Below the pieces are notes generated by a model, which searched no databases, was not told the origin of the DNA, and worked only from the letters and a program-made list of their open reading frames with translations. Shown piece by piece: positions 1-64,000 of a stretch of DNA of 64,000 nucleotides. A program made the translations under genes and the position numbers. How positions within the stretch are numbered: position 1 is the first letter of the stretch; every line of letters starts with the position of its first letter. The stretch is from Bacteroidota bacterium (GTDB taxonomy: Bacteria; Bacteroidota; Bacteroidia; 2-12-FULL-35-15), in the NCBI GenBank assembly GCA_025963715.1, contig JAOQAG010000024.1, forward strand, positions 1,155 to 65,154, in the 5' to 3' direction.

Positions 1-1244
1 TAAAAAAAGAAAATATTGATTGTGAATTTACCCGGCTGAACGGTTATCTTTTCCTGCATCCGACAGATGAAGATAACTCGCTGCAAAAGGAATTGGAAGC
101 CTGCCTGCGGGTTGGACTGGATGTGGAAATGCAGGAACACACTCCGGGTTTACTGAATAAAAATACGCAGGCACTGGTGTTTAAGAACCAGGGGCAATTT
201 CATCCGCTTAAATATCTGAAAGGCTTATGTGATGCAATTATCCGAAAAGGTGGAAAAATTTTCACAGAAACGCATGTGGAAAAAATCAACAATACCGGGA
301 TAATTACGGACAAGGGGTTTAAGATCTCTGCGGAATATATTGTAGTAGCTACTAATTCGCCGGTCAATAATAAATACGCAATGCATTTAAAACAATTTGC
401 TTACCGGACGTATGCGATCGGCATGCTGGTGAAAAAGAATACCATTCCACAGGCATTATGGTGGGATACGGGCGATTTTAATGCGAATGAGAACATTCCG
501 CCGTATCATTATATCCGTACGCAGCCTTACAATGAATTAATGGACCTGCTGATCTGCGGTGGCGAAGATCATGCAACAGGGCTTGCAAATGCGGACATTA
601 TTCCGGAAGAAAACCGCTATGGATTGCTGGAAGACTGGTTCAACAAACATTTTGCAAAGGGTGAAGTGGTGTTCCGCTGGTCGGGACAGGTAATGGAACC
701 AATGGATTCGCTGGCATTCATCGGGCATAACCCATGGGACAGTGATAATATTTATATCGTAACAGGCGATTCGGGAAATGGGATGACACATTCCACCATC
801 GCAGGAATGCTGATTGCTGATTTAATTACCGGGAAAGAAAATCCATGGGAAAAAATCTACAATCCATCCCGCCTGAAAATAATAAAAGTGGGGAATGTTT
901 TCTTTAAAGAATTTGCAGGCGGTTTTTCAGCTTATATAAAAGATAAGCCGAAACATGCCGATGAAGTAAAACTTTCGGAGATAAAAATCAACGAAGGAAA
1001 GATCATTGAACTGGAGGGAAAAAAGTACGGCGCTTATGCGGACGAGAAAAACAAATTACACCTGGTTGCCGCTGAATGTACACACCTTGGCTGCATTGTA
1101 AAATGGAATAACGATGAAAAAAGTTGGGATTGCCCCTGTCACGGAAGCCGGTTTATGCACACCGGGGAAGTGATCAACGGCCCGGCTAATAAAAATTTAT
1201 TTTATTTCGATGAAAATAACCCGCAACGAAAATTTAACAAATAA
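1..1244 (+). CDS. FAD-dependent oxidoreductase with C-terminal Rieske [2Fe-2S] domain. It is 5'-truncated by the window edge: the frame is open from nt 3 (KKENIDCEFTRLNGYLFLHPTDEDNSLQKELEACL...).
   Basis: The frame runs to the window start with no stop. The C-terminus carries the Rieske motif CTHLGC...CPCHGSRF. The N-terminal part resembles FAD-dependent amino-acid oxidase-like folds (DSGNGMTHSTIAG). Confidence 0.75.
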   Translation, partial: KKENIDCEFTRLNGYLFLHPTDEDNSLQKELEACLRVGLDVEMQEHTPGLLNKNTQALVFKNQGQFHPLKYLKGLCDAIIRKGGKIFTETHVEKINNTGIITDKGFKISAEYIVVATNSPVNNKYAMHLKQFAYRTYAIGMLVKKNTIPQALWWDTGDFNANENIPPYHYIRTQPYNELMDLLICGGEDHATGLANADIIPEENRYGLLEDWFNKHFAKGEVVFRWSGQVMEPMDSLAFIGHNPWDSDNIYIVTGDSGNGMTHSTIAGMLIADLITGKENPWEKIYNPSRLKIIKVGNVFFKEFAGGFSAYIKDKPKHADEVKLSEIKINEGKIIELEGKKYGAYADEKNKLHLVAAECTHLGCIVKWNNDEKSWDCPCHGSRFMHTGEVINGPANKNLFYFDENNPQRKFNK

Positions 1245-1369
1245 TAACCTGGAAATGTGGGAACTGGCATCTATTTTTTATCATTAAAATCTGAATAACA
1301 TTTGACCGCGACAAATAAATTTCAAAAATCAATTAATCAATCATCAACAATTTAAAACCTTTAAATAAA

Positions 1370-1615
1370 ATGGCAACGAATCAAAATAATGGTAACAATC
1401 AGCAAAATACTGGTTCTACCAATCAGAATCAAAAAAATCAGCAATCTACAAATAGAACGGAACAGCCGGAAAGCAATCCTAAAAGAGAAACGAATCCTAA
1501 CAATCCGACAGCTGATAAAACAAAACAGCAACAACCTGTTAACAAGCAAGATCAAAATGAGCCGCCGACAAATTCAAAACAAAACGACAGCAAAACGCCA
1601 AAAGAAAGAATTTAA
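1370..1615 (+). CDS. small Q/N/T-rich intrinsically disordered hydrophilic protein (81 aa)
   Basis: Compositionally extreme ORF (N, Q, T, K, P). It is followed 15 bp later by a clean intrinsic terminator and sits upstream of a ferritin-like stress protein. There is no homology-based support. Confidence 0.4.
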   Translation: MATNQNNGNNQQNTGSTNQNQKNQQSTNRTEQPESNPKRETNPNNPTADKTKQQQPVNKQDQNEPPTNSKQNDSKTPKERI

Positions 1616-1631
1616 TTATTCTTACAGTAAG

Positions 1632-1662
1632 CCTCCTGCTGTTGCGGGAGGTTTATTTTTTT
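1632..1662 (+). terminator. rho-independent terminator (cctcctgc-tgtt-gcgggagg followed by a T-run)
   Basis: GC hairpin followed by tttattttttt, read directly from the sequence. Confidence 0.7.
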
Positions 1663-1689
1663 GCTGAATTTTAAAAATTAAAAAAACAG

Positions 1690-2274: not shown

Positions 2275-2292
2275 AAAACATTTTTTATTTAA

Positions 2293-2330: not shown

Positions 2331-2507
2331 TATCTACTAAGATGATTACTTACCCGACACTTGTTGCGGGGATGACAAATTTCGAAGAGAAGATCAGTGA
2401 TAATCGTTTAAAACACTTTATAAAATTTTAGCTTATGAATGAGGAAACAGAAAATAAAAAAACCGAAGAAGAAGATTCCACGCCACTTTGCCTGGCACTT
2501 AAAACAT

Positions 2508-6745: not shown

Positions 6746-6792
6746 ACCTCACCCCTTCATCCCCTCTCCACAGGGAGAGGGGGCGATGCCCC
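6746..6792. repeat. REP-like palindromic element, family A (core cccctctccacaGGgagagggg)
   Basis: Near-identical copies at about 11551-11599, 22441-22487 and 35278-35323. Confidence 0.8.
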
Positions 6793-6890
6793 TACTATAC
6801 GTGTTCAATCCTAATAGATCATAAGCAGTTAGCTCTCTTTTTTGATCATAAAAATCCTAACAGATCTGCGTTCCTATTTTGCTTCTGCTC

Positions 6891-6938
6891 AAATTTATGA
6901 GATCCCGGGTCAAGCGCGGGATGACAGCTTCGATCTAT
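6891..6938. repeat. REP-like element, family B (gatcccgggtcaagcgcgggatgacag with a flanking aaatttatgag arm)
   Basis: Related copies at 2348-2377, 11285-11330, 11391-11424 and 22530-22572. Confidence 0.7.
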
Positions 6939-8852: not shown

Positions 8853-8864
8853 GGGAAGGAATTA

Positions 8865-9075
8865 TAAATGTTAAATTATAAATGTTAAATTATAAATTAT
8901 GAATGTTAAATTATAAATGCTGTAGATTATAAAACGTTCTCCACGCACAATTTCGTTCCTTTCGTACCGTTTCGTTTTTCGTTGATTTACTCAGTTTCGT
9001 TTTTTTCGTAAAATTTCGTTTTTCGTTGATTTACTCAGTTTCGTTCCTTTCGTAAAATTTCGTTTTTCGTTGATT
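8865..9075. repeat. tandem satellites: about 14-bp unit x4 (ttaaattataaatg) followed by a 44-bp unit x3 (tttcgttcctttcgtaaaa + tttcgtttttcgttgatttactcag)
   Basis: Direct reading shows alternating 19/25-bp sub-units. The spacers are near-identical to each other, so this is not CRISPR-like. Confidence 0.8.
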
Positions 9076-11240
9076 TAAGCTACAGTAGATCTCAAAATCA
9101 GCTTATTAATGTCCAGTGCAATTTTTTGAATGTAAATAAACTGATCAGATACTTTTGTTAAGAACGAGCGTTCTTCTTCCGTATGCGATTCGGCAATCGC
9201 CAGTTCCGAACGCTTGATCAGCTCCGGCATTACCGGTTTTCCATCCGAAGTTATTTCCACATGTTCGTTTTTTAAATGCGCCAGAATATTTTTGATCACC
9301 GGTAAAAATTGGGTGGTTTTATCTTTCAGCTGATAGGAATTATACGAAGACAAAGTGGAAACATGCGACAATAATAAGTGATTGAACACGACCAGGCTGT
9401 ATGTTTGAACGCTGTTTTCCTGTTGGCTCTGCGGTTCCGAAAGCATTCGCTGAAAAGCATCCGATAAATTTGCCATCGCCACATAGGCTTCCTTACGCAA
9501 TAATTTATATTGCATTTCATCAATGGCCCCGCCTGCGATTTTCTTTGAAACCAGCTCAAAATAATTGGCATTGGCACGTGTTGCATTTTGCACAAGTGTA
9601 TCCATTTGCTCGCGTTCCCAGCGCGGCGGGATCAGCAGTGTAGCCACAAACGCCAAAGCAGAACCGATGAGTGTATCGATGATGCGATCGCTGATAAGCT
9701 TATTGAAATTATCCACCTGCAATAAATAAAACGAGATCAGTAAATAGATCGTCATCAGGATCACTGCCGGAAAATAATTGATGCGGATAAAACTATACGC
9801 ACCCGCCATTACCACCACCATGATCACCAATAATACAAGCGGTGATTTTATAAAATACAGCAGCAAGGCACCCACCCCAACACCGATCACTGTTCCGAAA
9901 AGCCGGTTCATGTTGCGCTTCTTCGTAAGGCTGTATGCAGGTTTCAGGATCACAAGAATTGTTAGCAAAATCCAGTAATCGTGCCCGATCGGTAATAATT
10001 TAAGGGAAATGTAACCGATAAAAAGTGTAAGGCTTACGCGGATAGAATGCCTGAAAATATTGGAATGCACATTCAGGTTCTCAAAAAATAAACGTGGGTT
10101 GATCTGTGTGTTTGAAACAAATTTATTATAATCCAGCTCCGACTCCACACTTGCTGTAAAGTTGGGATCGTAGGCCGTATAGCGATGCATGATCAAAACA
10201 CTGCTGTAGATGTCCTGGATATTCTCCAGCACATGGCGCAGGCTGGTGATCTCTTCAATGTTGGAAGCGTCCGCCGATTCTTTGCGGTAATAATCAAAAT
10301 AAATTTCCAGCTCTTTGATCGTTTGTTCCGTCAGTGCATCCGGATACGATTTTTTTCCTTCCTGCATCGCTACGCCAATATTTTCGAGCTCAAACGCGAT
10401 CGCTAAAATTGTTTTTTCAAATTCAGCCAGCACTTCATCGTCGATCTTTGCATGCAGCATTTTATAATCCTGCTGCGAGGTCATTACCTGCTCGAATAAA
10501 TCAACGGAATCATTAAAAATAGCGAGCAGCGTACGGCCTTTATGCGTCGAATCTTTTACAATGCTGCGGGTTTTAAATAAAATTTCGCGTACCAGGTCCT
10601 GCTTCGTGTGCAGCTTCACCTGTCGCTCTATCAGGGCGGTGTAGCTTTCGTCATAATTTACATTTTTGCTATATAATGATGCTTTGACCTGCATGTATTT
10701 CGCGATCGATAAAATGGAATCACCGATGGCTTGCTGCGCCAATTTATAAGGCCGCAAACGGTTGAGCAATACGCTCCATAAAAAATACCAGCAGCCACCG
10801 ATCAGGATAAAAAGCGAATGCAGTACTAATTTTTTTGTATCGTAATTATCGTCAATGTTCAGGATCATGATCAATAATGCAGCAATACCAATGGAAGTAG
10901 CACGCGCACCGTAAATGCCCGCCATCGAAAAAATAAAACTAAAGATCAGTAATTCAATTGCCAGCAGCCAATGATGATTGGCGCTAAAACCGGTGATCAG
11001 CGAAATGGCAAATACCAGCGCGATCGAGATCAGCATTCCGTTTACACGATGATGCAATGGACCCGGACTATCGCACACATTGATGCACAGCGCCCCAAGC
11101 GCAATCACAACGCCCATGGGGATATTGCCAATGTACGCCGAAATAATGATCGGGATCATGATGGCGGCGGTAATCCGCAACCCATCGGTTACATAATAAC
11201 TGGTGGTGAATTGTTTGTATGATTTAAGGAAGTCCGGCAT
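9075..11240 (-). CDS. YccS/YhfK (FUSC-like) family integral membrane protein
   Basis: 721 aa with two blocks of hydrophobic helices separated by a large soluble region, the YccS/FUSC architecture. Confidence 0.65.
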   Translation of the reverse strand: MPDFLKSYKQFTTSYYVTDGLRITAAIMIPIIISAYIGNIPMGVVIALGALCINVCDSPGPLHHRVNGMLISIALVFAISLITGFSANHHWLLAIELLIFSFIFSMAGIYGARATSIGIAALLIMILNIDDNYDTKKLVLHSLFILIGGCWYFLWSVLLNRLRPYKLAQQAIGDSILSIAKYMQVKASLYSKNVNYDESYTALIERQVKLHTKQDLVREILFKTRSIVKDSTHKGRTLLAIFNDSVDLFEQVMTSQQDYKMLHAKIDDEVLAEFEKTILAIAFELENIGVAMQEGKKSYPDALTEQTIKELEIYFDYYRKESADASNIEEITSLRHVLENIQDIYSSVLIMHRYTAYDPNFTASVESELDYNKFVSNTQINPRLFFENLNVHSNIFRHSIRVSLTLFIGYISLKLLPIGHDYWILLTILVILKPAYSLTKKRNMNRLFGTVIGVGVGALLLYFIKSPLVLLVIMVVVMAGAYSFIRINYFPAVILMTIYLLISFYLLQVDNFNKLISDRIIDTLIGSALAFVATLLIPPRWEREQMDTLVQNATRANANYFELVSKKIAGGAIDEMQYKLLRKEAYVAMANLSDAFQRMLSEPQSQQENSVQTYSLVVFNHLLLSHVSTLSSYNSYQLKDKTTQFLPVIKNILAHLKNEHVEITSDGKPVMPELIKRSELAIAESHTEEERSFLTKVSDQFIYIQKIALDINKLILRSTVA

Positions 11241-11284: not shown

Positions 11285-11424
11285 GACTGTCATCCCGCAC
11301 TTGTTGCGGGATCGCATAAATGTTTGCAGTAACAATCTAATACTAATATATTTAATATCAATATTAAAACACTTTAGGTTTCATAATTAACCGATCCCGC
11401 AACAAGTGCGGGATGACAGTCGGT
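11285..11424. repeat. MITE-like unit: family-B inverted repeats (gtcatcccgcacttgttgcgggat / atcccgcaacaagtgcgggatgac) flanking a ~70-bp AT-rich core
   Basis: The two terminal copies are inverted and flank the AT-rich core. The unit lies in the yccS-tex intergenic gap. Confidence 0.65.
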
Positions 11425-11550: not shown

Positions 11551-11599
11551 CGCCTCGCCCCCTCTCTTGTGGAGAGGGGATGAAGGGGTGAGGTCTGCC
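11551..11599. repeat. REP-like element, family A (inverted orientation)
   Basis: cgcctcgccccctctcttgtggagaggggatgaaggggtgaggtctgcc. It abuts the tex stop codon. Confidence 0.8.
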
Positions 11600-13863: not shown

Positions 13864-14021
13864 GTATTTTAATTTTTTTAATATCACAAATATAGCCAAT
13901 AGAGAATGGTAGAACTATTAATATTTTCAACACTTTTAACACAGAGGGCACAGAGGTTTTAGAGCTTCACGGAGAAGAGTTTTTATATAAAAAAATATTA
14001 ATAAAAACTACACTAAGATTA

Positions 14022-14170
14022 ACACACCCCTAACCCCTCTCAAGAGGGGAATGCATCCTGCAAGCATTTGGAATATATTATTATTTTGTAATTTTCTTAA
14101 AAACTATATTTTACAATTTCAGAAGAATGATTCAGTTCCCCTCTTGAGAGGGGTTAGGGGTGTGTTCTGC
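14022..14170. repeat. MITE-like unit: inverted copies of cccctcttgagaggggttaggggtgtg (family A') flanking an ~85-bp AT-rich core
   Basis: Arms at 14022-14058 and 14144-14170. A single further copy sits at 30977-31012. Confidence 0.65.
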
Positions 14171-14202
14171 ATATAGCATAAGCACTGCATCTGCGCACAG
14201 CA

Positions 14203-14240
14203 AAACTTTGAACTTTTGAACTTTAAACTTTGAACTTTTT
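14203..14240. repeat. short tandem aactttgaactttaaactttgaac element (family E)
   Basis: Copies at 30819-30853, 57757-57800 and 57937-57980. Confidence 0.7.
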
Positions 14241-16351
14241 TATGAAATCCTGCTCCAGTTTGTCATCGCTCTTCCCATCATCGAAAAATGATACGCGATG
14301 TTTGCATTTTCGGGATTTTGCAATTCGGGATCTTCGGAAAGTAATTCAATCACCATATTGCGCGCCGCATGCAGGATGGGTGCATCTTTAGAAAGATCGG
14401 CGATATTAAGATCCAGCTCACCGCTTTGCATAGTGCCTGCCATATCACCGGGGCCGCGTAATTTCAGATCCACATCCGCGATCTCAAAACCATCGTTGGT
14501 ACGGCACATTGTTTCCATACGCAATTTACTATCGGGGCCTAATTTATTTCCTGTCATTAAAATACAATACGATTGATCGGCACCGCGGCCAACCCTTCCG
14601 CGCAGCTGGTGCAACTGCGATAAGCCAAAACGTTCGGCACTTTCAATCACCATCACGCTGGCATTCGGAACGTTCACTCCCACTTCAATCACTGTAGTGG
14701 CCACCATAATTTGCGTTTCTCTTTTTACAAAACGCTGCATCTCGTATTCTTTTGCATCCGCTTTCATTTGTCCGTGTACAATGCTCACCTGGTAAGTTGG
14801 CTGCGGAAATGCGCGCACCACACTTTCATAGCCATCCATCAGATCCTTGTAATCCATCTTCTCCGATTCCTTGATCAGCGGATACACAATATAGATCTGC
14901 CTTCCCAATTCGATCTGTTCTTTCATAAAACCAAACACGCGCATACGGTTGCTGTCAAAGCGATGTACGGTTTGGATCGGTTTTCGTCCCGGTGGCATTT
15001 CATCGATCACGCTCACATCCAGATCGCCGTAAAGCGTCATTGCCAGTGTACGTGGAATGGGTGTGGCGCTCATGATCAGCACATGCGGCGCGATGATATT
15101 TTTCGCCCACATTTTTGCACGCTGTGCCACACCAAAACGGTGCTGCTCATCGATCACCACCAAACCAATATTTTTAAACTGCACTACATCTTCCAGCAAG
15201 GCATGTGTACCGATCAGGATCTGCATGTTGCCATTCTGCAATTGTTCGTGCAGGATCCTGCGTGCTTTTGTGCGTGTGGATCCGGTGAGTAAACCCACCG
15301 TAATATTTAAAGGTTTTAATAATTCCGAGATCGTTTCATAATGCTGGTTTGCCAATATTTCCGTTGGCGCCATCAGGCAGGTTTGAAAACCATTGTCAAG
15401 CGCGATCAGCATGTTCATCAATGCCACCAGTGTTTTTCCGCTTCCCACATCGCCCTGTACCAGGCGGTTCATTTGCCTGCCGCTGCCCATATCCAGGCGA
15501 ATTTCCTTGATCACGCGTTTTTGTGCGCCCGTTAATTCAAAAGGCAAATGATGATTAAAAAAATTATTGAAATAATCCCCCACTTTCGAAAATACATTTC
15601 CCCGCACATTTTTTTCGCGTAGACCTTTTTGCCGCAGCAGCTTTAACTGGATGAAAAACAATTCATCAAATTTTAACCGGAACTGCGCATATTTTAATGC
15701 TTCCGGATTTTTCGGAAGATGGATTTGTCTGATCGCTTCTTCTCTCGAAATTAATTGAAAGCGTTCTTTGATTGAATTAGAAAGTGTTTCAGGAATGTTA
15801 TTTTTCAGCTGCGCCACCAGCAATTTTTGCAAACGGGCAATTCCCTTCGTATCCAGGCCCCGCACTTTTAATCGTTCGGTACTATTGTAAACCGCCTGCA
15901 AGGCACTTGCCAGCAAGGTGTTTTCTTCGCTCACCGGATCGATCTCCGGATGCGCAATGTTAAATTTTCCGTTAAATGCCGTCGGTTTCCCGAAGATTAC
16001 ATACTCGTTGCTCATGTGCGGCTTGATCCGTTCGGAAACCCATTTGGCACCCTGGAACCATACCAGTTCCAACACACCTGTGCCATCAGAGAACATCGCA
16101 ACGAAGCGTTTTGTACGTTTGGTTCCCACAAATTCCGTACTCACAATTTTTCCGCGCAGCTGCACATACGGCAGATCGGCATTGATCTCTTTTATTTTAT
16201 AAAATTTGGTACGATCAACATACCGGAAGGGATAAAACGTAAGCAGGTCGTTGTAATTAAAAATGCGCAGCTCTTTTTTAAGCAGATCGGCTTTTTGAGG
16301 GCCAACGCCTTTGAGGTATTCGATAGGAGTATTTAAAAAGTTGCCCGACAT
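14240..16351 (-). CDS. recG: ATP-dependent DNA helicase RecG
   Basis: 703 aa with wedge domain plus DEAD/DEAH helicase motifs (GDVGSGKT, DEQHRFG). Confidence 0.95.
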   Translation of the reverse strand: MSGNFLNTPIEYLKGVGPQKADLLKKELRIFNYNDLLTFYPFRYVDRTKFYKIKEINADLPYVQLRGKIVSTEFVGTKRTKRFVAMFSDGTGVLELVWFQGAKWVSERIKPHMSNEYVIFGKPTAFNGKFNIAHPEIDPVSEENTLLASALQAVYNSTERLKVRGLDTKGIARLQKLLVAQLKNNIPETLSNSIKERFQLISREEAIRQIHLPKNPEALKYAQFRLKFDELFFIQLKLLRQKGLREKNVRGNVFSKVGDYFNNFFNHHLPFELTGAQKRVIKEIRLDMGSGRQMNRLVQGDVGSGKTLVALMNMLIALDNGFQTCLMAPTEILANQHYETISELLKPLNITVGLLTGSTRTKARRILHEQLQNGNMQILIGTHALLEDVVQFKNIGLVVIDEQHRFGVAQRAKMWAKNIIAPHVLIMSATPIPRTLAMTLYGDLDVSVIDEMPPGRKPIQTVHRFDSNRMRVFGFMKEQIELGRQIYIVYPLIKESEKMDYKDLMDGYESVVRAFPQPTYQVSIVHGQMKADAKEYEMQRFVKRETQIMVATTVIEVGVNVPNASVMVIESAERFGLSQLHQLRGRVGRGADQSYCILMTGNKLGPDSKLRMETMCRTNDGFEIADVDLKLRGPGDMAGTMQSGELDLNIADLSKDAPILHAARNMVIELLSEDPELQNPENANIAYHFSMMGRAMTNWSRIS

Positions 16352-17471: not shown

Positions 17472-17474
17472 TGG

Positions 17475-17760
17475 CTCGCGTGCCCGCGTTTTTTTCTCGC
17501 AGAGACGCAGAGCTGGGTGATCCTGTGTGTTTTGTCTCGCAAAGTTCGCAAAGGCTGTGTGTAATGTATTTCTTATTCTCTAAACTTATTTATTTTTTTC
17601 TCTGCGATCTCTGCGTCTCCGCGAGCAACCTTTTAGAGCCTGCGAGTTTTTCTTTGCGTGCTTTGCGCCTTTGCGAGAAAAAAATGCGGGCCTGCGAGCA
17701 AACACAGTTTACACACAGTCTAACATCCAAGATCTAAAAATCCCCGTCCGAACGGATTCA
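17475..17760. repeat. cluster of short direct and inverted repeats built on CTCGCA(A)AG / CTTTGCGAG / CTCTGCG words
   Basis: ctcgcagagacgcagag ... ctctgcgatctctgcgtctccgcgag ... cctttgcgag ... cctgcgagc. The listed ORF 17471..17737 lies entirely in this repeat material. Confidence 0.6.
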
Positions 17761-18814: not shown

Positions 18815-18999
18815 TATTTTGTACAACGAATAGCGAATTTTTTCGAATAACGAATCTGTGTACCTACTAAATACCAATTTGTACTAATGTACCAATCTGT
18901 GTTTTTCAAAGTTTACCATTCGTTCTATTCATTAAGTATATAAGTTTGTTACTTTATTATTACAAGCTTTTTTAAGCGTATTGATTCGTAATTCGTTTT
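18815..18999. repeat. intergenic repeat block inside the korA-korB pair: family F (cgaataacgaat) at both ends, family G (ctactaaataccaatctgtactaatataccaatctgtgt) centrally
   Basis: Family G recurs at 59561-59610 and partly at 38066-38090. Family F recurs at 22403-22432 and 52651-52740. Confidence 0.7.
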
Positions 19000-20859
19000 T
19001 TATTCGTTATTCGATGATAACATTTCCACGATCTTATTCTTAATCTCTACTGAAGAAAACGGCAGTCCCTGCACCTTATTCAAGCCTTTAGCATCCACTA
19101 AATATTTATCACGGATGATTTTAATTAATTGTCCGCTGTTGATTTCCGGCATCAATACTTTATCAAAGCCTTTGATTAATTCACCTAAATTTTTCGGCAG
19201 CGGGTTCAGGTATTTCACATGCGCATGCGATACATCGTACCCTTCCGCGATGGCATCCTTCACAGCTGTTTTGATAGATCCGTATGTTCCGCCCCAGCCG
19301 ATCACCAATAACTTTCCTTTTGCATTTCCATTATCAATGGTTTGTAACGGCACGTACTCTGCAATCCTATCCACTTTTGCCTGGCGTAATTTTACCATCA
19401 GCTCGTGGTTTTCCGGATCGTAGGAAATATTCCCGGTCTCATTTTCTTTTTCAATCCCTCCTACTCTGTGCTCCAATCCTTTTGTTCCCGGGATGGCCCA
19501 TTCGCGCGCCAGTTTTTCGTTGCGTTTATACGGAAGGAATTTTTCTCCTTCTTTCAGATTATTTTTTGCAAAAGCCACTTTTATTTCAGGAAGATCTGCA
19601 GCAGCCGGGAATTTCCAGGGCTCAGCTCCGTTGGCAATGTATCCGTCACTTAAAAAGAAAACCGGCGTCATAAATTCAATTGCCAAACGGCAGGCTTCAA
19701 ACGCGGTATCAAAACAATCGCTGGGCGAATATGCTGCAATCACCGGCACAGGCGCTTCTCCGTTTCTTCCGTAGATCGCCTGCATCAGATCCGCTTGTTC
19801 TGTTTTTGTTGGCAAACCGGTACTTGGCCCGCCACGCTGCACATTCACGATTACCAGCGGCAATTCCAGCATCAGCGCCAAACCGATGGCTTCGCCTTTG
19901 AGCGCAATACCGGGGCCGGACGATGCCGTAATTCCCAATGATCCGCCAAAAGACGCACCTATAGCGGAAGTAACAGCTGCGATCTCATCTTCGGCCTGGA
20001 ATGTTTTTACGCCGAAATTTTTATGTTTTGATAATTCATGTAAAATATCCGAAGCCGGTGTGATCGGGTATGTCCCGTAAAATAAGGTTAAACCGGCTTT
20101 TTGCGTTGCCGCGATCAATCCCAGTGCTGCTGCCTGGTTACCCATGATGCTGCGGTAGGTTCCTTTGGAAACCGGCGCGGGTTTTACTTCGTAGCGGTTC
20201 ATCGGTGTTTCCACCGTATCGCCGTAGTTGTAACCGGCTTTTAATACTTTAATATTGGCATCGATCAGGTCCGGACGCTTTTTAAACTGTTCTTTCAAAA
20301 ACTCGATCGAGTTATCGAGGGAACGGTTGTACATCCAGTAAATGTAACCGAGCACAAACATATTTTTGGAACGGTCCATTTCCTTTGTTCCCAGGCCGGA
20401 ACCTTCCAGTGCCGTGCGCGTGATCCTGGTCACATCGATCTCGTATACCTTGTATTTATCAAGTGAGCTGTCCTTTAAGGGATTTACGCCCTCGGGATAT
20501 TTTGCCAGCTTTAGATTTTTTGCATCAAATCCATCGGTATTGGCGATGATGATGCCGCCCGGTTTTAATTGTTTTAAATTCGCTTTCAAAGCAGCGCCGT
20601 TCATTACCACCAGCACATCGGCTGCATCACCGGCAGTAAAGATCTCTTCACTTCCAAAATGCAGCTGAAACCCGGATACACCGGCAATGGTGCCTTGCGG
20701 AGCGCGGATCTCGGCCGGAAAGTTAGGGAATGTGCTGATATCGTTTCCATACAATGCCGCCGTAGTGGTAAACTGCGAACCGGTTAACTGGATCCCGTCG
20801 CCGGAATCACCGGCAAAAAGTATGACCACATTGTTTTTAATTTCTGTTGTTGAGCTCAT
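19000..20859 (-). CDS. korA: 2-oxoglutarate/2-oxoacid:ferredoxin oxidoreductase, alpha subunit
   Basis: 619 aa alpha/gamma fusion typical of KorA ([13 protein letters not shown]...). Confidence 0.9.
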
Positions 20860-22400: not shown

Positions 22401-22440
22401 TACGAATAACGAATAAATAACGAAAAACGAATCTGTGTGT

Positions 22441-22487
22441 AGACCTCTCCCCTTCATCCCCTCTCCACAAGAGAGGGGGCAACACCC
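22441..22487. repeat. REP-like element, family A
   Basis: agacctctccccttcatcccctctccacaagagagggggcaacaccc. Confidence 0.8.
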
Positions 22488-22529
22488 GAACTGTGTGTGC
22501 TAAAACCGAAGTGAAATCATAAATTTTTA

Positions 22530-22572
22530 CTGTCATCCCGGGCTTGACCCGGGATCTCATAAATGTTCGCAG
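22530..22572. repeat. REP-like element, family B
   Basis: ctgtcatcccgggcttgacccgggatctcataaatgttcgcag. Confidence 0.7.
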
Positions 22573-22841
22573 AAATGAATTTTACGAATCTGTGTTTGTT
22601 AAGAGATTGGTTTTGTCTGTTTCTCGACTCCACTCGAAATTAGAATTATACCCCGCACCATTTATAATTCAACATTTATAATTTATAATTTTACCCCCTG
22701 TACCATTTATAATCCATAATTTATAATTCCCTAAAAAATTTCTTTAAATGATTTTTAAATAAGTGCCGGTAATTTTTAATCTCCCTATAATTGTGTACTT
22801 TTAGCATACCCCTTAACTAATTTAATTTTATAAAATAAAAG

Positions 22842-24211: not shown

Positions 24212-24336
24212 TTGGTGTTTAACCGCAGAGAACGCTAAGGAGGCGCAGAGTTCGCGGAGGCTGGAATTAAAAATTAATTGAAATCGGAAAGTTTATACCA
24301 GGCTTATAACTATTTAATTGAAAAAACCTTAATTTG

Positions 24337-24431
24337 TGCGTCATTGCGAGGGCTTTTCGCCCGAAGCAATCTCATACCAGAATATAAACTAGAGTGAGAT
24401 TGCTTCGGGCGAAAAGCCCTCGCAATGACGT
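24337..24431. repeat. long near-perfect inverted repeat, family C (gcgtcattgcgagggcttttcgcccgaagcaatctca ... tgagattgcttcgggcgaaaagccctcgcaatgacg)
   Basis: ~37-bp arms with a ~20-bp loop. A second, near-identical copy lies at 36299-36393. A related element (ctccgctcgaaatgacag) lies at 54819-54907. Confidence 0.85.
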
Positions 24432-24487
24432 TCTTAAAATAATTTATTTTCATGGTGCAAAGTTTCGGATACTCACTAAAAATTAAA

Positions 24488-24582
24488 CCACATAAGGCAC
24501 AAAGAACACATAGGTTCTACATGTTAAGTACTACATTTTTACGCCTCGCCTTATGTGCTCTTTGTGCCTTATGTGGTAGAAA
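24488..24582. repeat. inverted repeat, family D (ccacataaggcacaaagaacacataagg ... ccttatgtgctctttgtgccttatgtgg)
   Basis: Single-arm copies at 35802-35835 and 57662-57695. Word-variants cactaag/cactgag at 57527-57640 and 57890-57912. Confidence 0.8.
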
Positions 24583-30815: not shown

Positions 30816-30818
30816 GGA

Positions 30819-35784: not shown

Positions 35785-36298
35785 AAACTATAGATTTTTT
35801 CCACCACATAAGGCACAAAGAAACACATAAGGCGAAGCGTGTTGCTGTGTTTGTAATGCTCCACTTGTTGTGCAGTTGTTGGGCGCTCATTATTTTTGCA
35901 TGGTTGGCCCAATGGGTTTTATCGGGTTTAAAGCTAAACAAATGTTTATATTGTTTTGAGGGGAACAAACAAACGGTTAAAATTATTTGACGAACGGTTA
36001 ACTACATTCCAAAATAGTAACCAATATTTAATCCGGCATTCCACAAATAACCAGTAACAGGCGCATCTATTATTTTTAAAACGCCGTACCTGAATGTCGG
36101 TTCAATTCGCAGATCATTCCTGCTGTTTAATCACTACTTTCCTTTGATCCATTTATTAAGCCTTTCAGCGAGTATGCCGCAATTAGGATGTTCTACCGAG
36201 CGGCAGGGGCACATTTGCAACAAAAAATAGTATCCGCCAGAGCTTAAAATAAAATGAGTATCCGGAACTTTGCACCATAAAAAGAATTTACTTTAAAA

Positions 36299-36393
36299 AC
36301 GTCATTGCGAGGGCTTTTCGCCCGAAGCAATCTCATTGTAGTTTTATACCCTGGTGTGAGATTGCTTCGGGCGAAAAGCCCTCGCAATGACGC
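36299..36393. repeat. long inverted repeat, family C (second copy)
   Basis: Arms near-identical to 24337-24431. The loop differs. Confidence 0.85.
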
Positions 36394-36463
36394 ATTGATT
36401 AAAACTTTTTCCAATAAAATAACTATGGCCTGGTATAAACTTTCCGACTTCATTTAAAATAAA

Positions 36464-48293: not shown

Positions 48294-48368
48294 TAACACA
48301 TCTAACATCTAACATCTAACATCTAACATCTAACATCTAACATCTAACATCTAACATCTAACATCTAA
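48294..48368. repeat. heptanucleotide microsatellite (CATCTAA)x~10, ending ~25 bp upstream of the fumC start codon
   Basis: Perfect tandem copies read directly. Confidence 0.9.
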
Positions 48369-50579: not shown

Positions 50580-50733
50580 AGAAGTTAAAAGTTTTAATTC
50601 AAAATTCAAAAGGTGCTGTGCGCAGGCAAAAGTTTTACCGCGAAGACACGAAGAAAAAAAGAAATGTTTTGTTTACACCTGATAAGTTTTGGTCACACGC
50701 TTTGAAAATCTGTTTTTATCCGCTACATCAGCG

Positions 50734-51321: not shown

Positions 51322-51526
51322 GTCTGTAGTAATTTTTCATTTAAAAAAAAGCGCTCTTCCATTCAGAAAAACGCTTTTCATTTATTTTTATTTCTTTTAT
51401 CCGTTTTAAATCTGCTGCATCCGCATCATCCGCGTTCCATCACTCACAGCCCCGATAGCTATCGGGACGCAGTTTCATTCCTGTTCCTGCCCGAATCGTT
51501 CAGGCGGGCGTTATCGTGTACCCGCA

Positions 51527-52650: not shown

Positions 52651-52740
52651 CTACGAATAACGAATTTAAACGAATAACGAATACTCACATAGTAGCATGT
52701 ACACAGATTCGTTATTCGTTTAAATTCGTTATTCGTTGTA
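52651..52740. repeat. ~30-bp-arm inverted repeat of family F (cgaataacgaatttaaacgaataacgaata ... tattcgttattcgtttaaattcgttattcg)
   Basis: Read directly. It lies between manC-like and the aminotransferase gene. Confidence 0.8.
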
Positions 52741-54039
52741 CTATTTCAATTTTTTTAATGCATCCCGTAAATTACCAATCACACCATCCACATCCTCTAA
52801 TTTACAGGTCCCAACGGATAAGCGGTACCAGCTTGAATCAGTCGAAGCGCCAAATGCGTAAAACGGAACGATCGCTACTTTTCCTTCATCCAGGATGTAT
52901 TTTGTAACATCGGGTGTAGTTTTCAAAACGGTTCCATCTGCAGTTGTTTGTCCGTGCAGCGAAAACTGAACGGTTAAATAAATAGCCGCTTCCGGAGCGA
53001 TGGCATCCACTTTAAATCCTTCTGCTTTTAAGCTTTGGAAACCTTTGTAAAAACCAACCAAACGATCGTTGATCTTCGATTTGATATCCGTTAAAAACGA
53101 ATCATAACTTGCCAGGTCATCCAGATACACGGCGCTTGCCAGCTGTTCAGCTTTTGGCGCCCATGCACCTACGTGCGTTAAAATAGATTTCATTTTATCG
53201 ATGATCTTTTTCGGGCCCATGCTCCAGCCAACGCGAACGCCGGTTGCAGCAAGCGATTTGGAGATCCCATCTACAAACACTGTATAATTTTTCATTTCCG
53301 GACGTAAGGAAACCGGGTTAAAATGTTCGGTATCGCCATGCGTTAGCGCCCAGTAGATCTGATCGTACATCAGGTACAATTGTTTTTTTCCGGTCGCATT
53401 CCGTTTTACATTTTCTTCCAGGATCATGTCGCAGATCTCTTCCAGGTCTTTTTTACGGAAAGTAGTTCCGGTAGGATTCAAGGGCGAGCACAAGGCGATC
53501 AGATTCGCGGAAGCGATGTGCGGCTTCAGATCCGCAGCCGTAGGCATAAATTTATTTTCCGGAGATGTTTCGATCAGCACTTGTTTTGCATTATTCAAAT
53601 ACGTATAGTGATTGTTATTCCAGGATGGAACCGGGAACACAACGGTATCGCCTTCATCTACCAGTGCCCTGAAAATAGCGTAGATCACAGGACGTGCGCC
53701 ACCGGCAATCACGATCTCATCCACTTTATAATCCAGGTTACCGCGCTCTTTCAATAATTTTGAAACGGCAGCACGCAACTCCGGCATCCCATCGGCAGCC
53801 GGGTAATTGGTCTGGTCGTCCTCATACTCCGCGATGATCGCTTTTTTTAATTCAGCAGGGATCGGAAATACTTTCGGGTTAAAATCACCAATGGTAAGAT
53901 TATATACTTTTTCGCCTTTTTTTATTTTCTCATTTACTTCCGCGGCAAGCTTTATAATTTCGGAACCGATGATATTTTCTGCAAGCTTTGAAACTTTCAA
54001 ATCAATGTTTTTGTCAACTGCGGTGGTACTCATTTTCAA
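52741..54039 (-). CDS. class I/II PLP-dependent aminotransferase
   Basis: DGISKSLAATGVRVGW (PLP-lysine region). 432 aa. Confidence 0.8.
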   Translation of the reverse strand: MKMSTTAVDKNIDLKVSKLAENIIGSEIIKLAAEVNEKIKKGEKVYNLTIGDFNPKVFPIPAELKKAIIAEYEDDQTNYPAADGMPELRAAVSKLLKERGNLDYKVDEIVIAGGARPVIYAIFRALVDEGDTVVFPVPSWNNNHYTYLNNAKQVLIETSPENKFMPTAADLKPHIASANLIALCSPLNPTGTTFRKKDLEEICDMILEENVKRNATGKKQLYLMYDQIYWALTHGDTEHFNPVSLRPEMKNYTVFVDGISKSLAATGVRVGWSMGPKKIIDKMKSILTHVGAWAPKAEQLASAVYLDDLASYDSFLTDIKSKINDRLVGFYKGFQSLKAEGFKVDAIAPEAAIYLTVQFSLHGQTTADGTVLKTTPDVTKYILDEGKVAIVPFYAFGASTDSSWYRLSVGTCKLEDVDGVIGNLRDALKKLK

Positions 54040-54818: not shown

Positions 54819-54907
54819 TGTTTCTCAGCTCCGCTCGAAATGACAGGCATTGTACAAGTTTAAAACCGATCGCAATCATTGTCATTTCGAGCGGAGCCGA
54901 GAAACGT
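54819..54907. repeat. inverted repeat related to family C (gtttctcagctccgctcgaaatgacagg ... cattgtcatttcgagcggagccgagaaacg)
   Basis: A single related arm lies at about 22601-22640. Confidence 0.7.
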
Positions 54908-55031
54908 GCAATTTTTTATTACTGTAATAATCAAACAATTTATAAGAACACAAAAATACGCATGAAACGTATGAAGAAATAGCGATCCGGGAAAATTTTA
55001 TTAATTTTTTAATCTGTGAATCTGTGGCAAC

Positions 55032-57526: not shown

Positions 57527-57980
57527 TACCACTAAGGCACTAAGAACACTGAGCCCCCGCCCATTAACCACAAAAGAAAACAAAAGAAACAAAAGACGAA
57601 GCTAATATTTTACCACTAAGGCACTGAGGGCACTAAGGTTATTTCCCCCAGCCCCCGTCAACCACATAAGGCACAAAGAAACACATAAGGCGGGGCTTGT
57701 TAACCTGTGGTGTAGTGTATGATGTGTTTTAATAAATAATTAAATCGTCATCCGTACACAGCAAACTTTGAACTTTTTAACTTTAAACTTTGAACTTCTT
57801 TTGCCTTCGTGGCTTCGTGGTAAAAAAACCGCTCCGCAGGAACACACAGCATCCTTTTTATTTTGAATTTCCTCCCTTTTTCTTTCCCTTTCTTAGTGCC
57901 TTAGTGGTAAAAAATGATCGCGCAAGCGATCCACACAGCAAACTTTGAACTTTCCAACTTTAAACTTTGAACTTTTTATT
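57527..57980. repeat. dense repeat field in the feoA / mlaE divergent region: family D word-variants (accactaaggcactaag, accacataaggcacaaag) and family E (aactttgaactttaaactttgaac) x2
   Basis: Read directly. Confidence 0.75.
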
Positions 57981-59514: not shown

Positions 59515-59622
59515 AGTACAGATAACGCCCGCCTGAACGATTCGGGCAGGAACAGGAACGAAACTACTAAATACCAATCTGTACTAATATACCAATCTGT
59601 GTGGTTGCTTCCGGCAAGCTGT

Positions 59623-60115: not shown

Positions 60116-60137
60116 TGTAATTCTATTGTACTAAAGA

Positions 60138-61354: not shown

Positions 61355-61381
61355 CTATGTGAATTAAAAAGGTAGTTATTG

Positions 61382-62464
61382 TTATTTAACGATTACCATT
61401 TTCATAGCAGTAGTTGCATTTGCACCAACTGTTAATGAATAATAATAAACACCTGCAGCAAGATTTTCACCATTGAATTTCAATGAATGCTGTCCTGCGC
61501 TTTGTGTTCCTTCATTTTGTTCAGCTACTTTGTTTCCGGTTACATCGTAAACAGTAATGGAAATTGCTGCTGTTTTGTTCAGTTCGTAGTTAATAACAGA
61601 TGTAGAGCTGAATGGGTTTGGCATGTTCTGAGCAACTTTTACTCCGTTTACAAATTCGTTAATGCCTGTTGAAACACCTTCTGTTAAAAGGATCTCATCC
61701 AATCTTATTACGTCCATATCGTTTGCAGTGTGATGGAAAGCGATTGCTACCTGTATTCCATTAAAAGACGCAGGGATAGCCATGGAATGCAATACCCATG
61801 TAGTATCTGTTGCATAGGTTGGCGACGGATATGCTGCATCTGCCAATGAATAAATGCTTGTTGCCGCATCAAAATCGGTAAAGTTCATTGGTGTAGAGAA
61901 GACGTCAGAAACCAATACGGAATAACCATCACGGTAACGGTTAAAACGATCGTACCATGATAATGTAGCACCGGCAGCAGGGATTGTTACAGGCCCGATT
62001 TCCAGCCAGTTGTCAGCTTGTCCTGCAGGATCAAACCAAGATGTTCCTGACCAGAAGAATGCTGTATCAGTACCCAATGGAGCTGGTGTTTCCCATGGAT
62101 GGTAATAGTTAGCACCGTGAGGAACAGTACAAGTAGCACATGATTGTCCATAAATGCTTGAATCTGTTGAATAATAAACGCCGAATGATGTTGCATAACC
62201 GGCATTGTGAGTTGTTAAACCATCGATATCTTCCGTTACAACGTCAAATGTAGGAGCATCGGCAGAATTGATGATAGTGCTTGGCAATGGTTGGTACATT
62301 AAAGTATCACCCGCCATACGCGTAGTGTTTGCAGGCATTGCTACAATGTGTGTTCTTGTGGTTGATTTGTGGTCGGTACCGGTTTGTGACGTACCTTTTA
62401 CCTGCTGAGCATTTGCTGAACAAACAATTGCCGTAGCTGCAATTAATGTGTAGATTTTTTTCAT
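61382..62464 (-). CDS. secreted protein with T9SS type-A C-terminal sorting domain, unknown function
   Basis: Signal peptide. C-terminal QNMPNPFSSTSVINY...GVYYYSL. Confidence 0.7.
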   Translation of the reverse strand: MKKIYTLIAATAIVCSANAQQVKGTSQTGTDHKSTTRTHIVAMPANTTRMAGDTLMYQPLPSTIINSADAPTFDVVTEDIDGLTTHNAGYATSFGVYYSTDSSIYGQSCATCTVPHGANYYHPWETPAPLGTDTAFFWSGTSWFDPAGQADNWLEIGPVTIPAAGATLSWYDRFNRYRDGYSVLVSDVFSTPMNFTDFDAATSIYSLADAAYPSPTYATDTTWVLHSMAIPASFNGIQVAIAFHHTANDMDVIRLDEILLTEGVSTGINEFVNGVKVAQNMPNPFSSTSVINYELNKTAAISITVYDVTGNKVAEQNEGTQSAGQHSLKFNGENLAAGVYYYSLTVGANATTAMKMVIVK

Positions 62465-62547
62465 GAGCTAAGATTTTAAGTTTATTTATAAAGCACTAAA
62501 TTACGGTTTTTCCTTCTAATTTGCAATTTATAGTGGCAGAAGAGCAT

Positions 62548-62582
62548 AAAAAAATCCCAAAATTTCTTTTGGGATTTTTTGT
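62548..62582. terminator. bidirectional terminator (aaaaaaatcccaaaa...ttttgggatttttt)
   Basis: Read directly. Confidence 0.8.
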
Positions 62583-62645
62583 AATCGGCTAAGTATACAT
62601 TTTTACAGCTATTTGCGAGCCAAAAAATCTGTTCCTGACAAATCT

Positions 62646-64000
62646 CTATGCCAATTCTGCTTCTTCCATATAACTTTCGATCGGAGGACAGGCGCAGATC
62701 AGGTTCCTGTCGCCAAATGCATTGTCCACGCGGGCCACACTCGGCCAGAATTTAGCATCTTTTACCCATTTCAGCGGATAAACTGCTTTTTCGCGGGAAT
62801 ACCCATGTTTCCAATCGCTGCTGATCACTGATTTTGCCGTATGCGGGGCATTCTTCATCACATTGTCGTCTTTGTCCGCTTTTCCTTCCGCGATCTCATC
62901 AATTTCTTTTTTAATAGCGATCATAGCCGCACAAAAACGATCCAGCTCTTCTTTGCTTTCACTTTCGGTTGGTTCCACCATTAATGTATCGTGTACCGGG
63001 AAAGAAACGGTTGGCGCATGGAATCCGTAATCCATCAATCGTTTTGCGATATCGCCCACCTCTACTCCTGCATCGCGTTTAAAGGCCACACAATCCAGGA
63101 TCATTTCGTGCGCACAGCGTCCGTTTTTACCGCTGTACAATGTCGGGTAATAACCTGCCAGCGATTCTTTAATATAGTTGGCATTTAAAATGGCCATACG
63201 GGTAGCTTCGGTAACGCCATCGCCACCGAGCATTTTAATGTATCCGTAGGAGATCAGCAAGATCAGGGAACTGCCGAACGGCGCCGCTGATACTGCAGAA
63301 ATACCCTGGTCGCCACCGGTTTTTACCAATGTATGCGATGGCAGGAAGGGCACTAATTGTTTTGCAACACCGATTGGCCCCATGCCGGGACCGCCGCCGC
63401 CGTGAGGGATTGCGAATGTTTTGTGCAAATTTAAGTGGCACACATCCGCGCCAATGTTGCCCGGACTGGTTAATCCAACCTGTGCATTCATGTTTGCACC
63501 GTCCATATATACCTGTCCGCCATTTTCATGAATGATGTCCGTGATCTCGATGATGCTTTCTTCGTATACACCGTGTGTACTTGGGTACGTCACCATCAGG
63601 CAGGATAAATTATCTTTGTGCAATACGGCTTTTTCGCGCATGTCGTTCACGTCAATGTTTCCTTTTTCATCGCATTTTACCAGTACGATCTTCATTCCGC
63701 ACATGGCAGCGCTGGCAGGGTTGGTACCGTGCGCTGATGTTGGGATAAGCGCAATGTTGCGGTGTGCATCGCCGCGCGACTGGTGATAAGCCTGGATCAC
63801 TAATAATCCGGCATATTCGCCCTGTGCGCCGCTGTTTGGCTGAAAGCTCATTTTTGCAAAACCGGTGATCTCGCTCAGGGAACGGTCCAGCTCGTCGATC
63901 ATTTCGATGTAGCCTTCCGCTTGCTCTACCGGAACAAATGGGTGAATGTTTGCAAATTCCGGCCAGGTGATCGGCATCAGCTCCGAAGCTGCATTTAGCT
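62646..64000 (-). CDS. gcvP: glycine dehydrogenase (decarboxylating) P-protein, C-terminal portion. The 5' part lies beyond the window.
   Basis: C-terminal GcvP region ([11 protein letters not shown]..., [24 protein letters not shown]). The frame is open to nt 64000. Confidence 0.9.

Follow-up and report, generated by a model that had tools for sequence, protein, structure and literature searches.

The 64,000-nt stretch of DNA analysed here (the window; positions 1,155 to 65,154 of contig JAOQAG010000024.1 in assembly GCA_025963715.1, from a Bacteroidota bacterium) has a G+C content of about 41% and carries ordinary chromosomal genes, among them pheT, mutS2, tex, recG, korAB, fadL, moxR, recX, prfB and arsC, as well as fumC, feoAB, mlaE/F and a fragment of gcvP. 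Several of the encoded proteins end in type IX secretion system (T9SS) tails, which mark the DNA as Bacteroidota, and no tRNA gene was found in the window. A RecG scan of species genomes places the source organism inside a clade of uncultured metagenome-assembled genomes (MAGs), the RIFCSPLOWO2_12_FULL_35_15 group, within which RecG is 75-89% identical, the next Flavobacteriales reaching about 62-66%. Our subject is the DNA between these genes, in which a first-pass annotation had noticed nine families of short repeats (A, A', B, C, D, E, F, G and I) and had likened them to repetitive extragenic palindromic (REP) sequences and miniature inverted-repeat transposable elements (MITEs). Our results suggest that this is an ordinary core chromosome whose intergenic DNA has probably been colonised not by one but by several distinct classes of small non-coding repeat: tagged REP hairpins, a MITE, G+C-rich hairpin modules, and modules made of short repeated words that have no structure of their own.

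All nine families were found again by approximate matching within about 15 nt of the positions first given, A' at 35412 proving to be only a loose relative (hairpin CTCTCCCTTGAGGGGAGAG, 35412-35445). The description of the repeats as intergenic, modular and dense was borne out. 16-mers that recur at a distance of at least 300 nt account for 17.6% of the intergenic bases and 0.8% of the coding bases, and their total coverage of 2273 bases compares with about 100-160 in Markov simulations. When all intergenic sequences were compared with each other by BLAST (E <= 1e-3, copies at least 100 nt apart, the 42.3-44.3 kb duplication left out), 2227 of 8846 nt (25%) fell within dispersed repeats, against 0 in three shuffled controls. 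The statement that almost every gap over 100 bp holds a copy was too generous, the actual figure being 20 of the 32 gaps of at least 100 nt. Strict word arrays, defined as one 6-mer occurring at least three times at a period of 6-12, number 14 in the window and 1 in a shuffle, and their density of 2.2 per 10 kb is about five times the 0.40-0.45 seen in 1.4 Mb of related genomes. In 22-kb tiles the repeat density of the window lies above the median of 51 related loci and inside their range, a comparison of low power. Rfam gave 0 matches at the gathering threshold in the window; the sub-threshold matches were to generic long-hairpin models on inverted pairs.

Such repeats might in principle be chance matches in low-complexity AT-rich DNA, or artefacts of MAG assembly. 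Some of the 11-12-mer matches in AT-rich promoter regions are indeed noise, and 11-mer recurrence at gene ends is usable only with a raised threshold. Against this, the shuffled controls left no covered base, the pattern of the family C core was found 4 times where 0.00 were expected, the same elements are present in other genomes and in metagenomes, and three contigs of the independent Logan assembly of run SRR13312996 (L001, L202 and L203, 4.7-9.6 kb) are 100% identical to the window across many modules. The shuffles, the core pattern search and the Logan contigs already refute this explanation, whose probability we put at practically nil. All four internal ends of the Logan contigs (8917, 14214, 22456 and 59917) lie inside repeat modules, which suggests that further near-identical copies of the broken modules exist, within the window or beyond it. 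The possibility that the repeats are not enriched outside the window, which would have spoken against the first-pass annotation, could be followed in part: contig breaks, metagenome matches and related loci all extend the element types beyond these 64 kb.

RNA folding separates the families into two groups. A, B, the C arm, J (a further hairpin, described below) and I2 fold into hairpins with energies of -10 to -22 kcal/mol, whereas for E, F, G, D, the (ACATCTA)n array and the AATTATAAATG array the minimum free energy (MFE) is near 0 and folding is no better than in their own shuffles, mostly worse. We therefore think it quite improbable that all nine families are of one kind, short palindromic mobile elements of the REP/MITE sort that serve to terminate transcription or stabilise mRNA. 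This proposal does account for part of the material, since B, C and C' are REP-like and C is a MITE; inverted pairs are present for B, A', D and F; and known REPs lie downstream of genes and may even supply stop codons (PMC3733652). It is contradicted for D to G by the folding, single modules of these families showing no self-complementarity. The inverted pairs of B and A', read at first as the signature of MITEs, exist as described, but have no direct repeats at their flanks. The proposed terminator role also fails for A and B, as no T-run stands behind their hairpins and these are thus not canonical intrinsic terminators. Finally, the architectures differ between families: tagged hairpin, leader plus hairpin, and word array.

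Family C is a genuine MITE. Its two copies (Table 1) align over about 200 nt in opposite orientation, measure 199-200 nt, and contain only spurious short open reading frames (ORFs). The ends, TGAAATCGGAAAGTTT... and ...AAACTTTCGGATACTCA, match at about 70%, and the DNA of the element folds into a long hairpin of -53.9 kcal/mol (z -12). A check for target-site duplications, suggested with the first-pass annotation, was positive for both C copies, each of which is flanked by an exact 10-bp direct repeat, and negative for the B and A' pairs. The empirical rate of 10-mer coincidence at such offsets in the window is about 3e-6 per position and offset, so that two exact duplications are not due to chance. 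The duplication of copy 2 adjoins the stop codon of the T9SS gene at 36464-37897. No match to the outer arms of C was found in 3.4 Mb of related and metagenomic sequence, and no parent insertion sequence with C ends is present in the window. The arm (CGTCATTGCGAG...CGAAGCAATC), in turn, is of a motif found very widely: at least 120 IMG/VR contigs contain its generic pattern. Among the matches listed, the motif GTCATTGCGAG-N5-25-CGAAGCAATC (contigs L002-L121) reaches up to six copies per viral-classified contig, its halves conserved and its inner hairpins variable.

MITEs are known from other bacteria, for example Correia/NEMIS of Neisseria and Nezha of cyanobacteria. C resembles these in being about 200 nt long and non-coding, in forming a long hairpin with imperfect terminal inverted repeats, and in having exact target-site duplications at both copies. 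It differs in that its duplication is 10 bp, rather than the TA of IS630-type elements, and in that no parent insertion sequence was found for it; B and A' pairs, which fail the duplication test, are unlike MITEs in this respect too.

The second class comprises B, the central hairpins of C (the C core) and a variant, C'. B follows the layout TGTC-ATCCCGCA-CTTGT-TGCGGGAT-C, that is, a tag, an 8-bp stem opening with A-T and then T-A, a 5-nt loop and a tail. The tag is TGTC in 4/4 B copies and in C', and CGTC in 4/4 arms of the C core. To avoid circularity, we drew the covariation set from the fetched DNA as a whole with tag, loop and tail as the sole criteria; it holds 21 distinct sequences with 13 different stems, 94.6% paired. 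Five of the eight pairs of the B-type stem show compensatory changes, pairs 1-2 being invariant AU/UA. This level of covariation was reached by 0 of 500 shuffles, and slid registers were 20-49% paired. A permissive tagged-hairpin scanner was dropped because shuffles gave as many matches as the window. There are five copies of B in the 64 kb; related hairpins occur at 0.42 per 10 kb in loci of the clade, and the C' variant recurs three times in a related MAG locus (L123). As to arrangement, the B pair at 11285-11423 and both C cores are head-to-head dimers, C' is a tail-to-tail dimer and three B copies are single, the number of copies being small.

These features fit membership of the superfamily of CGTC-tagged REPs, as judged by sequence and predicted structure. 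That superfamily is defined by an 8-9-bp stem with first pairs A-T and T-A, a loop of 4-5 nt and a high copy number; it includes tag variants such as TGTC and CCTC, forms mostly head-to-head dimers and counts Bacteroidetes among five host phyla, and its members have no dedicated transposase and are not linked to REP-associated tyrosine transposases, or RAYTs (Di Nocera, De Gregorio & Rocco 2013, PMC3733652). The terminal CGTC or TGTC tag and the stem opening with A-T, T-A are present in B, the C core and C'; B further agrees in stem length (8 bp), loop (5 nt) and short tail. The occurrence of head-to-head dimers with the tags outside, the location after coding regions and the absence of a transposase alongside the hairpins in the window agree as well. 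Departures from the superfamily are that a GA/GAA internal loop breaks the stem of the C core, which is longer though it obeys the A-T rule, that this core is embedded in a MITE, and that B carries a conserved 17-nt extension (CATAAATGTTYGCAGWA). REPINs and RAYT transposases have reportedly been described by Bertels and Rainey and by Nunvar and colleagues. The B dimer, C core and C' dimer are similar to them as inverted REP doublets with short spacers, and unlike them in having CGTC/TGTC rather than GTAG as tag and no RAYT gene in the window. RAYT subclasses 2.4 and 2.6 belong to Bacteroidetes (PMC6006769). In the inverted pairs of B and A', the resemblance is to head-to-head dimers of REPs and not to MITEs.

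The same and similar pairs (11285-11423, 14021-14166, 17474-17699 and 18821-19013) could also be invertons, promoter switches that a recombinase with its gene outside the window would flip. Such switches are frequent in Bacteroidota, and 30-40-nt inverted repeats around AT-rich cores of 67-146 nt in promoter-bearing gaps would suit them. Typical inverton cores are longer than these, though, the window has no recombinase gene, and the families that supply the arms are mostly found as single copies, making this a very improbable explanation.

The G+C-rich hairpin modules A, A', J and I2 form a third class. The A' arm is found in a related MAG locus (L122) with 32/32 identical positions and in two other contigs at 94-97%. 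The bases behind the hairpins are GCGAGGC for A, TTAGGGG for A' and CNCATAAAT for B, with no T-runs. Among A, A', B and J, a hairpin is combined with a T-run only in J inside its 135-nt repeat, whose units look like a + strand terminator; a third copy of J (4192-4216, 12 nt past the pheT stop) is without the T-run. Ordinary hairpin-plus-T terminators are present at other genes of the window. The A'-like hairpin mentioned above lies within the first 80 nt of the annotated arsC ORF (35374-35454), the Pfam match of which begins at residue 28; the ORF has probably been called too far upstream, with the hairpin in mis-called 5' sequence. In the recG-tex gap of the related locus L123 (12360-12900) we observed about four tandem copies of a unit of about 200 nt, with REP-type and A-like hairpins alongside.

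The fourth class consists of the structure-free word modules, among them D, E, F, G and I1. Each is an array of 2-10 copies of a 6-10-nt word, not a palindrome. E, F, G and I1 have a common plan of a few word copies with short spacers and a closing CTGTGT, the junctions often reading TGTAC. Intergenic DNA (9.1 kb) holds 22 occurrences of CTGTGT/ACACAG and coding DNA (54.5 kb) holds 9, so that the sequence is 13-fold enriched between genes. Tandem Repeats Finder reported arrays of period 7-10 at 8860, 14204, 17599, 18984, 22402 and 30818, and further ones at 48298, 52653, 57570, 57614, 57764 and 57941. D-type arrays are each homogeneous for their own word (CACTAAG, CACATAAGG, CGCAGAG, CGCAAAG or CACGAAG), which points to local amplification. 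Dispersed whole modules are 90-95% identical over 40-45 nt, and such identity of distant copies indicates that modules are also copied as units. The inverted F pair at 52652-52741 fills the gap between two co-directional genes, one arm beginning at the aminotransferase stop. The AATTATAAATGTTA array has a reverse-complement relative at 22660-22728, and the AATCTGTGAATCTGTGGC module has further copies at 4120-4137 and 11460-11477 and, reversed, at 4023-4040. The perfect (ACATCTA)x10 array upstream of fumC is a candidate for slipped-strand length variation.

Three simple ideas about the word arrays were dropped. Rho utilisation does not suit them, as on inspection their sense strand is not C-rich or G-poor. 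Provision of stop codons in three frames holds for words containing TAA and fails for CGCAGAG, CACAGAG and CACGAAG. As to tiny mariner-like elements flanked by TA, the words themselves contain TA, so that the test is uninformative, and there is no consistent terminal inverted repeat.

Hairpins and MITE are thus of known kinds, and the word modules are poorly described. Long simple sequence repeats were reportedly treated by Mrazek in 2007. In Nostoc/Anabaena, SDRs of 20-30 nt are said to be dispersed elements nested among heptamer arrays and MITE-like elements (work attributed to Elhai and colleagues, 2008); set side by side by description, these are alike in being very small intergenic elements and unlike in phylum and sequence. 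We found little literature on such modules beyond a study of TAACTGA repeats, which lie near start codons in Beggiatoaceae, Cyanobacteria and five Bacteroidetes (MacGregor 2015, PMC4679880), and a search with literal sequences gave only unrelated primer matches. By analogy, the word arrays are probably a Bacteroidota variant of the heptamer, or STRR-type, repeats. D, E, F, G and I1 likewise consist of intergenic tandem words of about 7 nt, lie a few nt from a start codon or behind a stop, mix words within a gap and are sporadically distributed across lineages. They differ in their words (ACGAAT, AAGTTCA, CACNNAG, GATAAC), which usually come in 2-4 copies with variable spacers, in the common CTGTGT/TGTAC punctuation that ends E, G, F and I1, and in the dispersal of whole modules at 90-95% identity. 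The passages of MacGregor 2015 (PMC4679880) that were consulted mention neither this punctuation nor the polarity rule described below for F (and, within the 64 kb, seen for E, G and I1).

That modules sit at gene ends was confirmed. We examined the 80 nt behind every stop, in the sense of the gene, for the 38 3' ends with a gap of at least 60 nt, and at about 20 of these a module starts 0-16 nt past the stop. The orientation is constant for each family: F lies behind fadL, korA and the aminotransferase gene, E behind recG and moxR (with an E-like module behind the ORF at 49884-50579), I behind the recX, nucleotidyl-transferase and ABC ATPase genes, and A behind tex and prfB. The korA and DUF72 ORFs end inside an array. 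Looking no further than 40 nt from the end of the gene, we found a stretch of at least 16 nt shared with another gap at 14/38 3' ends and at 2/30 5' ends, three 5' ends in the 41-44 kb duplication being set aside.

Modules at corresponding sites change between species. In the recG neighbourhoods of 18 related MAGs the strict motifs of the window are nearly absent, and the same element types are present as other sequence variants, as seen with relaxed motifs and by eye. Directly past the recG stop, the window has E words, four related loci (L122, L128, L130 and L138) have F words, L123 has an A-type hairpin whose first bases complete the stop codon, and L126 has other 7-nt words. The words ACGAAT, AATCTGTG and AAAGTTY are found also in Chryseobacterium and Vicingaceae loci and in IMG/VR contigs.

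The F pattern CGAAT..ACGAAT..ACGAATCTGTG occurs in at least 120 metagenome contigs, and the following counts apply to the matches listed. The word end could be assessed in 90 of the 109 intergenic copies, and 58 of these have a coding boundary no more than 25 nt away from it (23 same-strand stops and 35 opposite-strand starts), as against 11/92 for the CTGTG end. F modules end 0-28 nt, mostly 3-9 nt, before the ATG of a long ORF in 43 of 123 cases. The genes behind F (L204-L323) are thiL and a PduO-type adenosyltransferase gene (three times each), rpsG and sua5 (twice each), thyA, dnaE, nadB and others, and in their sense the F words read TAnnTTCG. This is one base from TAnnTTTG, the Bacteroidetes -7 promoter consensus. 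Carriage of F by phages was considered and set aside, there being 1 IMG/VR contig only, which holds a long AATCTGTG array. In that contig (L324, about 3600-3800) the array has an 11-nt unit, (A/C/T)(A/C)(C/G)AATCTGTGA, and its word AATCTGTG is the closer of the F, G and I modules in the window.

This placement raises the question of function. The word modules, and perhaps the A hairpins, may be functional cis-elements of mRNA margins kept by selection, which we consider a tenable though rather unlikely alternative. In 3' untranslated regions (UTRs) and in leaders before starts they might serve as unstructured platforms or as sites of protein binding, or the TAnnTTCG words could act as promoter-like boxes. 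The polarity at coding boundaries and the frequency of F just before ATG codons argue for this, as does the fact that the same gene families carry an F module in different contigs. Four species with RecG proteins only 80-89% identical have F words behind this gene's stop, the arrays fold no better than their shuffles and mostly worse, and the same vocabulary is found across families of Bacteroidota; a similar proposal has been made for the TAACTGA repeats (PMC4679880). On the other hand, the downstream genes are functionally unrelated housekeeping genes and form no regulon, so that the idea of an F regulon was rejected. The RNA would read ACGAAU behind stops but AUUCGU before starts, and one function at the RNA level cannot serve both. 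Quite different modules occupy the orthologous recG site in close relatives, and many genes have no module and use ordinary hairpin-plus-T terminators. The persistence of F at orthologous sites, together with the polarity, keeps a functional reading alive.

A bolder form of this idea, which we regard as speculative and unlikely, is that the word modules (ACGAAT, AAGTTCA, GATAAC, TACTAAATACC; closer CTGTGT/TGTAC) would be Bacteroidota-wide polar elements of coding boundaries with a common vocabulary, the word end facing a same-strand stop or an opposite-strand start. They would be set there by an undescribed process at the DNA level, or kept as a general device of mRNA margins in a phylum without Shine-Dalgarno-guided initiation. 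Bacteroidota initiate translation without Shine-Dalgarno pairing.

We favour colonisation by several classes of repeat, and propose that it came about as follows. Hairpins of the CGTC-tagged superfamily would spread as hairpins, alone or as head-to-head or tail-to-tail dimers. C, a MITE of about 200 nt with a central REP dimer, would have been inserted by cut or copy transposition leaving 10-bp target duplications. To these would be added the G+C-rich hairpin modules and the structure-free word modules, the latter probably the Bacteroidota counterpart of the cyanobacterial STRR and Beggiatoa heptamers. Words would be amplified and homogenised locally when replication slips, and complete modules would be copied to other places. 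Members of every class accumulate in transcribed gene margins, behind stops in fixed orientation and, for F, also before starts, and they turn over quickly between species; there they may be tolerated beside coding regions and perhaps co-opted as UTR or intercistronic elements. The data show the identities and structures of the repeats, their placement and turnover and the target duplications, whereas we infer how words and hairpins are copied and any function that they may have.

Several points weigh against this proposal. No transposase, RAYT or any other gene with a transposase-type domain was found in the 64-kb window. The flanks of the B dimer (TTTTTCAAGA / TCGGTTTGGT) and of the A' pair (CTAAGATTA / TCTGCATAT) share no direct repeat. 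A close strain was sought in the collections and none was found, the next-best FadL being 79% identical; insertion polymorphism is visible for no family except C, through its target duplications, and genome-wide copy numbers are extrapolated from the 64 kb. The occurrence of F at the same orthologous recG site in four related species is equally expected under purifying selection, which is likewise compatible with F upstream of thiL, sua5, rpsG and the PduO-type adenosyltransferase gene in several metagenome contigs. Lastly, neither simple selfish spread nor slippage would lead one to expect word modules to be so strictly polar.

Table 1. Repeat modules of the window (positions in window coordinates)
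Module	Position	Strand	Context and remarks
A: C-rich leader ACCTCACCCCTTCAT + stem CCCCTCTCC/GGAGAGGGG	6746..6792	+	divergent pheT-mutS2 gap; -21.7 kcal/mol
A	11551..11597	-	3 nt past tex stop, gene's sense
A	22442..22488	+	directly behind F array following fadL stop; Logan contig end at 22456
A	35278..35323	+	1 nt past prfB stop, gene's sense
A' inverted pair	14021..14166	.	31-nt arms, 100% complementary; 84-nt AT-rich spacer
A' single (TTCCCCTCTTGAGAGGGGTTAGGGGTGTGT)	30978..31008	+	
B head-to-head dimer, TGTC-tagged	11285..11423	.	67-nt AT-rich spacer; no target-site duplication
B single: hairpin + CATAAATTTGAGCAGAA tail	6883..6929	-	
B single	22528..22574	+	stem CCCGGG/CCCGGG compensatory relative to 11285 copy
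B relative, degenerate	2348..2377	-	
C MITE copy 1	24268..24486	+	element 24278-24476 (199 nt); imperfect terminal inverted repeats
C copy 1, centre	24339-24374 / 24395-24430		two CGTC-tagged hairpins, head-to-head
C copy 1, target duplication TAAAAATTAA	24268-24277 + 24477-24486		10-bp direct repeat
C MITE copy 2	36244..36463	-	opposite to copy 1; element 36254-36453
C copy 2, target duplication TTAAAATAAA	36244-36253 + 36454-36463		10-bp direct repeat
C' tail-to-tail dimer, TGTC-tagged (GTCATTTCGAGCGGAGCCGAGAAAC)	54820..54905	.	same variant three times in L123
D inverted pair, CAC-word array CCACATAAGGCACAAAGAACACATAGG	24485..24576	.	
D array	35801..35832	+	16 nt past arsC stop; unstructured
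D-type cluster, four arrays	57527..57690	+	words CACTAAG, ACAAAAG, CACTAAG/CACTGAG, CACATAAGG
D-type arrays, two	57804..57907	-	CCACGAAGCCACGAAGG 57804-57820; CCACTAAGGCACT 57895-57907
D-like CGCAGAG/CGCAAAG inverted repeat	17474..17699	.	40-nt arms, 146-nt spacer; 3 nt past mlaD stop
E (AAGTTCAAAGTTTAAAGTTC...GCTGTG)	14196..14243	-	begins at recG stop, gene's sense; MFE -1.4 kcal/mol; Logan contig end at 14214
E	30812..30857	+	2 nt past moxR stop, gene's sense; followed by I1
E-like	50580..50625	+	1 nt past stop of ORF 49884-50579; followed by CGCGAAG/CACGAAG array
E	57756..57801	-	feoA-mlaE gap
E	57933..57977	-	word end towards mlaE start codon, 48 nt away
F (TACGAATAACGAAT...ACGAATCTGTGTGT)	22401..22440	+	begins at base after fadL stop; MFE 0
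F inverted pair	52652..52741	.	30-nt arms, 100% complementary; 24-nt spacer
F 18821-18869 chained to G 18864-18902	18821..18902	+	F word end 20 nt from korB start
F words, overlapping	18983..19013	-	overlap and supply korA stop codon
44-nt unit x2.9	8951..9077	-	each unit four ACGAAA words + CTGAGT; begins at stop of FUSC-family gene
I1 (GTACGGATAACAAACAGGAAC...CGAATCTGTGCGT)	30856..30896	+	
I1	32938..32978	+	8 nt past recX stop
I2 (GATAACGCCCGCCTGAACGATTCGGGCAGGAACAGG) 59521-59565 chained to G 59564-59602	59521..59602	+	6 nt past ABC ATPase stop
I2	51471..51515	-	98% identical to 59521 copy; 11 nt past nucleotidyl-transferase stop, gene's sense
135-nt tandem repeat, 2.4 copies, 94% identity	59620..59946	+	unit: GATC-type words, hairpin J (GCAGGCGCGAGTGTCCCACTCGTGC), T-run
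AATTATAAATGTTA word array	8860..8920	+	7 nt past mutS2 stop; Logan contig end at 8917
AATCTGTGAATCTGTGGC word module	55011..55028	+	5 nt from feoB stop
(ACATCTA)x10, perfect	48298..48368	+	25 nt upstream of fumC start codon

These repeats matter in practice: short-read assemblies break off precisely where genes end, small ORFs that are spurious arise from the repeats, and annotated starts and stops are displaced (as at korA, DUF72 and arsC). For the CGTC-tagged REP class they add Bacteroidota examples with clean covariation, and the REP dimer inside a MITE with 10-bp duplications is a concrete lead to a transposase. Word modules with strict start/stop polarity occur in hundreds of metagenome contigs, beside ordinary housekeeping genes. 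Should they affect transcription, translation or the decay of mRNA, they would count as a general trait of how a major phylum expresses its genes; if they are selfish, the rule that targets them calls for an explanation.

The window holds a few further features. A tandem pair of CHU_C (T9SS) paralogues at 41366-44261 is 77% identical over 1.4 kb; the upstream non-coding part of this duplication is 92% identical over 300 nt, compared with about 79% for the coding part. The repeats had been suspected of driving it, but no copy of families A-I was found at its junctions. The T9SS-tailed gene at 36464-37897 contains, within its coding region (36890-37750), 153-nt periodic repeats, presumably repeated protein domains. 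In prfB (34186-35277) we recognised the classical programmed +1 frameshift site CTTTGAC at 34248-34254, the frame leaving ...ALRGHL* there. Finally, an ORF of 81 aa at 1371-1616, called in the Logan contig too, encodes a protein extremely rich in Q, N, K and P (MATNQNNGNNQQNTGSTNQNQKNQQ...).

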